In this document: positions 23,273-23,911 of the stretch, piece after piece
Layout: each line of letters starts with the position of its first letter
Numbering within the stretch: position 1 is the first letter of the stretch
Assembly: GCA_964016885.1 (NCBI GenBank)
Contig: CAXHJY010001719.1
Location: 1 to 47,200 of the forward strand
Length of the DNA: 47,200 nucleotides
From: Eledone cirrhosa
Lineage: Eukaryota
Direction of reading: 5' to 3'
Made by a program: the position numbers and the translations under genes
Notes under the pieces: generated by a model
What the model was told of the DNA's origin: nothing
Databases searched by the model: none
What the model saw: only the letters and a program-made list of their open reading frames with translations

Positions 23273-23396
23273 GTAGGAGGTGAGTTTTATTGTAGTACAA
23301 TAAAGCAATGCAGATATCGAATAAGAAGATATCGGATATGTTGATTTAAAACTGCACTATTCACAAGTGTGTTTTAACCTTCATATCATGTCTCCC

Positions 23397-23467
23397 TATT
23401 TTATCTGACGAAAACGCAAATGTTATTGCATGATGATATTTGTTTTTGAAATGCGCATAATAAAATA
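23397..23467 (+). ncRNA. Minimal type I hammerhead ribozyme, intact core
   Basis: TATTTTAT-CTGACGA-AAACGCAAATGTTAT-TGCATG-ATGATATTTGTTTTT-GAAA-TGCGCA-TA^ATAAAATA; palindrome ATGCGCAT; predicted cleavage after 23459. Confidence 0.85.
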
Positions 23468-23641
23468 CATGGAACTCTTTTAACCATCTTTTGATCTTAT
23501 ATATATTATATATAATGGAAAAATTTGAACAGGGACAAAACAGAGAGGCAGTACAACGAATGTTTATTAATTTCACGCTCTATATAAATTAATAAAAACA
23601 AGGAATAAAAACAAAGAAACAGTTCCTTATATTAAAAAATT

Positions 23642-23777
23642 CATCATTTTACGATCGTTTCTAGGATATATATGTGTTTGTTGGTATGTATATCATATAG
23701 ATCTATGTAAACATTTTATAAACTATCAGGGGAAATATACATACCTACACATATATATGCTGTCTTCAGAAATAATG
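23642..23777 (-). ncRNA. Hammerhead ribozyme with ~100-nt stem II
   Basis: CATTATTT-CTGAAGA-CAGCATATATATGTGT..GGTATGTATAT..ATATACATACC..ACACATATATATCCTA-GAAA-CGATCG-TA^AAATGATG; palindrome ACGATCGT. Confidence 0.8.
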
Positions 23778-23911
23778 TTTATCTTGACTCTGTTTTCCTG
23801 TGATTTTCATCGAAAAAATTTTTTGAATACATCTTCTCTTTTCATGATATTTGTATTACATTGAGTTCTTCATACGGATTGGACACTACCGTATATTTTG
23901 GTAGATTTCTC

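Follow-up and report, generated by a model that had tools for sequence, protein, structure and literature searches.

Pairs of minimal hammerhead ribozymes lying on opposite strands, 100 to 700 bp apart, have been described in genomes (Cervera and De la Pena 2014, PMC4209133). The locus studied here, a short island between two long (TA)n tracts in the genome of Eledone cirrhosa, carries such a pair, although in the available text of that account the orientation and family of the pairs are unspecified. Taken singly, our motifs resemble the metazoan PLE minimal hammerheads of the same text in being of type I with an intact core, a palindromic stem III and a long stem II, and in the occurrence of many families per genome, mostly as lone copies. 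They differ from them in having a stem I of 8 bp (4-5 in Schistosoma), in the 10.1-11.1 position, which is A-U or C-A and not G-C, and in a C-C mismatch after a 3-bp stem II base (five of six motifs); the stem II region of one of the pair (B) reaches 101 nt.

The hallmarks of PLE insertions, as given in the available parts of two reports (PMC8557442, PMC3846280), are an inverted 5'-truncated copy, a one-sided tail and (TA)n targets. The pieces of our island share with insertions of EN+ PLEs the inverted truncated copy, the tail at one end and the (TA)n target; within TA repeats a target-site duplication would not be readable. However, their tails, at ~90 and 134 nt, have three to four times the length given in print (30-40 nt), and they contain no ORF. 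Also unlike the known EN+ PLE insertions, there is no inverted repeat at the locus, because only the tail is left of the direct part.

For the Poseidon element of Anolis carolinensis, the available text of Frangieh et al. 2024 (PMC11167929) describes an enzyme that cleaves AT-rich DNA on both strands and extends each of them. Reverse transcription there starts inside the RNA, at two sites 3' of the hammerhead, and the tail is the stretch between them; hammerhead cleavage was dispensable and seen only with the protein. On our reading the island is similar, in that its tails would lie between two start sites 3' of the hammerhead and its AT-rich target would be cut on both strands. In Poseidon, however, an AC-rich stem-loop at the ORF start contains both sites a short distance apart, whereas here they would be 90-134 nt apart and there is no convincing ORF start. 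The inverted layout that we derive from two start sites is our own inference and is not drawn in that part of the Poseidon account.

Metazoan non-LTR retrozymes, as portrayed in the available portions of PMC7229834 and bioRxiv 10.64898/2026.07.22.740005, are likewise non-coding and AT-rich, carry a type I hammerhead and are likely moved by a PLE enzyme; unlike them, our locus has no tandem units and its motifs are minimal, not of the canonical type (PMC7229834). A search of the literature on PLE twin priming and cephalopod hammerheads found no treatment of the layout reported below, but it was too thin to call the layout unpublished.

The two hammerhead motifs and their relatives

Within a window of 47,200 nt (contig CAXHJY010001719.1), a descriptor scan located a type I minimal hammerhead on the plus strand at 23397-23467 (motif A) and another, with a long stem II, on the minus strand at 23642-23777 (motif B; fold z -3.45). 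An earlier note on this DNA had reported both motifs at exactly these positions, one in sense on each strand, both with an 8-bp stem I and a palindromic stem III, and all of this was recovered; the spacing, given there as about 175 nt, is 174 nt. Motif A has the core CUGACGA...GAAA, a 36-nt stem II region, a 6-nt palindrome and an AUA triplet (H17 at 23459, after which cleavage is predicted). Stem I of motif B has seven Watson-Crick pairs and one G-U, and is accompanied by the core CUGAAGA...GAAA, a 6-nt palindromic stem III and a GUA triplet (H17 at 23650, again the predicted cleavage site). Both motifs thus present CUGANGA, GAAA and NUH in type I order. The description "nearly intact" holds for the cores but not for the 10.1-11.1 position, an A-U pair in A and a C-A mismatch in B. 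A G10.1-C11.1 pair is highly conserved in minimal hammerheads, according to the available text of PMC4209133; none of the six motifs in the window has it (the copy at 42074 has G-U).

Not even one such motif (stem I of at least 5 bp) appeared in 5000 dinucleotide shuffles of the island, against two observed, and 100 block shuffles of the whole window gave none against six. The Rfam hammerhead families gave no match in the island at the gathering threshold or at E values up to 10; at that relaxed limit there were 11 matches to the island, all far below gathering, eight of them to miRNA-type hairpins. About half of the raw reads (1593 of 2998 in run X18) have U in place of A at position 23650, and both letters fit the NUH rule. 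The length of stem II of B also varies among reads, with loose ends behind 23678. In both families stem II begins with three pairs followed by the C-C mismatch in the five motifs mentioned above, motif A having C-U instead; this mismatch above the stem II base is possibly a tertiary contact.

Four further hammerheads of the A type were found by the same scan, at 5344-5280 (-), 15462-15398 (-), 26818-26883 (+) and 42074-42009 (-), all sharing stem I with motif A and none with a facing partner. Over the five A-type copies, 74 of 75 cells are paired in stem I, the stem II base and stem III (36-60% in slid controls), and 4 of the 15 pairs have changed on both sides, two of the four stem III pairs among them. 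As the copies are related, this covariation is support and not a probability. The sequence of stem II differs in all six motifs of the window, a count that excludes a weaker candidate at 19667-19589 (-) with an intact core, an 8-nt palindrome and a 5-bp stem I, ~50 nt upstream of a TA tract. In the copy at 42074-42009 (-), stem I is immediately preceded by TA repeats, and no tail adjoins the motif. Pattern scans for relatives found 0 loci in metagenome contigs and 0 in viral contigs.

An island made of three high-copy pieces

The window is AT-rich, with 53% of it masked by short tandem repeats, and resembles non-coding DNA from an animal genome rich in microsatellites. Rfam gave no match at the gathering threshold over the whole window. 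A Pfam scan of 50 frames (49 of 76 frames, those outside short repeats, plus one frame of the island) found 0 of 50 above the cut-off and no remnant of an RT, a GIY-YIG domain or an endonuclease; the 27 frames left out lie within longer tandem or low-complexity repeats. A weak C2H2 zinc-finger match was seen at 29445-29615 (+), with an E value of 0.0098 and 16 bits against a cut-off of 25. The window also has minisatellites at 4089-4380, 25049-25244, 31073-31827 and 45519-45863, with units of 58, 81, 48 and 107 bp, respectively, the last unit recurring at 46198-46302. A G+C-richer repeat family lies in TA tracts at 1633-1844, 25254-25575 and 28619-28819, with one end in fold-back copies and a one-sided extension; its stretch 28619-28739 is a palindrome. 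The geometry of the family is PLE-like, but the descriptor scan found no hammerhead in it.

The island is flanked by (TA)n tracts of 1521 bp on the left (21753-23273) and 1171 bp on the right (23912-25082), both likely insertion targets. The left tract is interrupted mostly by TG (70 TG, 20 TT) and the right one mostly by TT (2 TG, 53 TT), and because these patterns differ the two tracts must have expanded separately. The earlier outline of the island gave the lengths of the flanking tracts correctly, but it overlooked two internal TA remnants and a third piece between them. The first remnant (23498-23514), visible in the sequence and as a drop in read depth at 23505, separates the A element from this third piece, and the second (23581-23586), of three units, lies at the outer end of the B element, in a depth minimum at 23561-23606. 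The third piece, C (23515-23580), is a 66-nt end of another high-copy repeat, starting at TA and with its own depth peak, where many molecules end at 23572. It contains an ATG frame of at least 22 codons on the plus strand, probably by chance.

Depth was taken from three raw RAD-seq runs of one study (X18, X19 and X20, with 150-nt reads), and contigs from four other runs (X1, X4, X5 and X6) under three organism labels. Since ~12,000 of the 12.5-12.8 million reads per run fall on 661 bp of the locus, its pieces must be very abundant repeats. Along the island, depth in the three runs is 2578, 3009 and 2736 at 23478 against 170, 164 and 180 at 23505, then 662, 544 and 498 at 23534, 126, 82 and 88 at 23571, 274, 252 and 363 at 23599, and 2998, 2848 and 2574 at 23650. 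The value at 23478 is inflated by one restriction stack (1142, 1539 and 1333 molecules ending at 23450). When that stack is discounted, depth still falls some eightfold toward 23505, where roughly two thirds of the covering reads (121, 119 and 119) differ from the window. The contigs tell the same story: in X1, 42 and 48 contigs enter TA behind 23492 and 23514, respectively, other contigs come out of TA before 23518 or 23520 (the latter in X5) and pass into other sequence behind 23580/23581, and among the 32 contig pieces listed (7874 further pieces were found) none bridges either internal TA remnant.

The island is, then, a stack of three separate pieces and not one unit. The collapse of depth at both joins and the lack of any bridging contig among those listed speak against co-occurrence of the two halves at other loci, a check that the earlier note had proposed; as the reads are 150 nt long and the gap between the motifs is 174 nt, linkage elsewhere is only bounded by the depth at the junctions. 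The significance that had been attached to the convergent pair is not supported, as the halves are independent repeat families and random placement of six motifs in the ~23.6 kb of the non-microsatellite half of the window gives a convergent pair within 400 nt in 12% of trials. Considering that the two motifs belong to separate abundant repeats that likely landed independently, their facing position is likely a chance neighbourhood, ordinary in kind.

Flipped tails and the origin of the A and B elements

The A element comprises a hammerhead-bearing, pLTR-like repeat end at 23336-23502 (+), 5'-truncated and inverted with respect to a tail, of which 55 nt are kept at 23274-23328 (-), in sense toward the left TA tract. 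This tail, recognized from joint reads, contigs and homologues in the window, lacks ~33 nt at its inner end, and a 7-nt filler (23329-23335) occupies the inversion junction, where loose ends lie behind 23325/23328 and before 23336. In the B element, the hammerhead-bearing, pLTR-like end at 23584-23777 (-) is truncated exactly at the edge of stem I and is inverted with respect to a complete tail of 134 nt at 23778-23911 (+), defined by opposite-strand joints and in sense toward the right TA tract. Both hammerhead parts are considered 5'-truncated because reads run on upstream into sequence absent from the window: 382 and 445 reads (X19 and X20) continue before 23336, and 498 and 457 (X18 and X19) behind 23777, where molecules also end at 23776 and 23778.

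Copies elsewhere, under three organism labels, have each outer segment downstream of its hammerhead and in sense, while here it is flipped. For A, the joint 23328/23502 between opposite strands is found in 1164, 1556 and 1326 reads with 16, 17 and 9 starts, a count that comes mostly from the one RAD stack whose molecules end at 23450 and that may therefore represent one or few loci; the reads of the stack then run into TA before 23271. The same joint occurs in X1, and reciprocal loose ends at 23328 and 23502 are found in contigs of X4 and X6 (organism labels B and C). From these opposite-strand joints and loose ends, the order of A elsewhere reads hammerhead, 3' flank, the ~33 nt absent here, the tail from 23328 to 23274, and (TA)n. 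For B, the opposite-strand joint 23608/23778 is supported by 122, 178 and 68 reads, and 23589/23778 by 2, 5 and 5 reads plus contigs of X1 and X5, with 5 shared letters and nothing lost; contig 20 of X5 contains both parts in the other order, the hammerhead part and then the tail. The tail is thus present at one end only, downstream of the hammerhead, with ~90 nt in the A family and 134 nt in B.

Three window copies (5246-5583, 15354-15705 and 26663-26924) have both ends in common with A and a middle that differs in length. Their outer segments (5488-5583, 15616-15705 and 26663-26740) are homologous to 23274-23328. The first two, starting at 5488 and 15616, have the same inner site as tail start and reach the sequence that the reads show after 23502. 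These relatives sit between TA tracts with their ends abutting TA, and we read them too as a tail plus an inverted truncated hammerhead end.

All four outer ends of A and B abut TA. The distance of 125-135 nt from each hammerhead to its TA junction in the earlier note is correct for the 5' edges, which lie 123 and 134 nt from the long tracts; the relevant TA junctions, however, are those 39 and 61 nt downstream of the predicted cleavage sites, because copies elsewhere run hammerhead, flank, tail, (TA)n. The similarity of the two longer distances follows from the flipped tail plus a 5' truncation of variable length. Hairpins before the TA junctions end 12 nt short of TA at three of the four island ends and 7 nt short at the fourth; compared with shuffles, only one of 12 ends scored at about 1 in 40 (8/300) and three more at 16-26/300. 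We found no convincing ORF start, of the kind known from Poseidon and Adineta, in the 3' flank or tail of A or B.

Because the tail is in sense elsewhere and flipped here, each half is best read as a PLE footprint, a tail plus an inverted 5'-truncated pLTR. We consider it highly probable that the island is a three-piece stack in one TA tract, with A and B likely having inserted independently as PLE ends, each likely written by a PLE RT that used both strands of the cut as primers at two fixed positions on a single RNA. A PLE protein with RT and GIY-YIG activities, supplied in trans, would cut the two strands of the (TA)n target. From one 3' end, cDNA synthesis would begin at the far tail end and cover the tail alone; from the other it would begin at the near tail end, proceed through the 3' flank and the hammerhead and stop early. 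Once joined, the two cDNAs would place the tail and the hammerhead part in head-to-head orientation, each with its outer end in TA. Piece C and two events of this kind would have hit one TA tract, the facing hammerheads being a by-product. B fits this scheme without any loss; in A, 33 nt are missing and 7 have been added where the two parts meet. The scheme resembles the twin priming of L1, but with a fixed inner site. Against the two-site model stand the tails longer than published, the few independent starts of the joints and the absence of a linked ORF. Since the 50 frames scanned yielded neither an RT nor a GIY-YIG remnant, the tie to an autonomous PLE is an anatomical one, and A and B are filed as likely PLE end fragments, not as proven members.

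We lean, by a little, toward a more specific claim, that each half is the smallest record of a PLE integration: a bare tail set head to head against a truncated hammerhead end, with the junction exactly at the fixed inner start site. If true, two unrelated long-tail families would show the in vivo extension of both (TA)n strands by a PLE from two fixed starts on one RNA, the inverted-pLTR-plus-tail signature of the whole PLE class would be explained, and natural templates for in vitro work would be gained. Half B in particular would connect the two internal RT start sites seen in vitro, in the available text of PMC11167929, with an inverted genomic layout. The locus itself is of little weight, but it is useful as a clean specimen of PLE insertion geometry, to which it contributes two families and read support from more than one species.

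It is unlikely, although it deserves weighing, that the halves derive instead from non-LTR retrozymes, small tandem hammerhead units whose RNA circles are copied by a PLE enzyme, and not from the ends of coding PLEs. The pieces are indeed short, non-coding and of very high copy number, and the available text of bioRxiv 10.64898/2026.07.22.740005 presents retrozymes and pLTRs as related. However, there is no tandem hammerhead unit at the locus or in the window, and no head-to-tail joint appears among the joints listed (15 of 26 contig rows and 15 of 22 read rows).

The pieces could also be of the same PLE type but have been flipped in another way. Self-priming on an antisense or tandem transcript, a template switch on such a transcript, or a later DNA inversion between TA-rich sites would each do this; we hold such an origin to be quite doubtful. 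Head-to-head inversions of PLEs are explained by self-priming on an antisense template in the available part of PMC3846280; here, a few reads (up to 15 per row) fold back at 23772-23777, every breakpoint is AT-rich and A has its 7-nt filler. By contrast, the outer end of the inverted part of B and the start of its tail abut exactly, sharing 5 letters, and the tail start is the same in the window copies at 5488 and 15616, as expected from the two fixed RT sites described in the available text of PMC11167929. Such an origin would change the mechanism only and leave the verdict on the island as it is.

Ambisense viroid-like RNAs carry one ribozyme per polarity, both inherited as one rod-like or highly paired unit. 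That the 638 bp are one such unit, or a bidirectionally transcribed self-terminating module, is extremely improbable and largely refuted: there is one sense hammerhead on each strand and the whole island folds better than its shuffles (z -3.6 and -3.9, 20 shuffles), but read depth falls away at either internal join, the parts are joined elsewhere to partners of their own, terminal redundancy and a heterodimer helix are absent, and the four other A-type motifs stand alone. A rod-like circle was rejected, as the circular fold pairs only 61-63% of the bases and only 39 of 201 and 15 of 194 pairs join the halves. In animal genomes rich in microsatellites, hidden TA remnants should be searched for before a pair of facing hammerheads is taken as ambisense RNA.

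Predicted ribozyme function

Minimal hammerheads show no cleavage as monomers and low activity as dimers, according to the available text of PMC4209133 and of a review (PMC6765202). In agreement with a dimer-type motif, the stem III hairpin of the monomer is predicted at +4.7 (A) and +2.4 (B) kcal/mol and the homoduplex at -10.5 and -10.0. A heterodimer of A and B was rejected, as their stem III palindromes pair with themselves and not with each other (-1.0 kcal/mol). In a transcript of the whole island, stem I has a predicted probability of 0.78-0.90 in A and of 0.03-0.05 in B, against 0.7-0.8 for B in a minimal transcript; B is predicted to misfold in the island because the 5' strand of its stem I pairs with the adjoining flipped tail. 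These results do not support the proposal that this is the best locus for a functional test; it is a poor one, since it offers a single motif per strand, of a class inactive as monomer, no pairing between A and B, and a B stem I that would rarely form in context.

If the predicted ribozymes act at all, they would do so as homodimers within tandem precursor RNA elsewhere, and the lone copies at this locus are likely silent. For a dimer construct, A is the better choice among the A-type motifs of the window because its palindrome is G+C-rich: the stem III homoduplex of the other A-type motifs is predicted at -2.2 to -3.2 kcal/mol.
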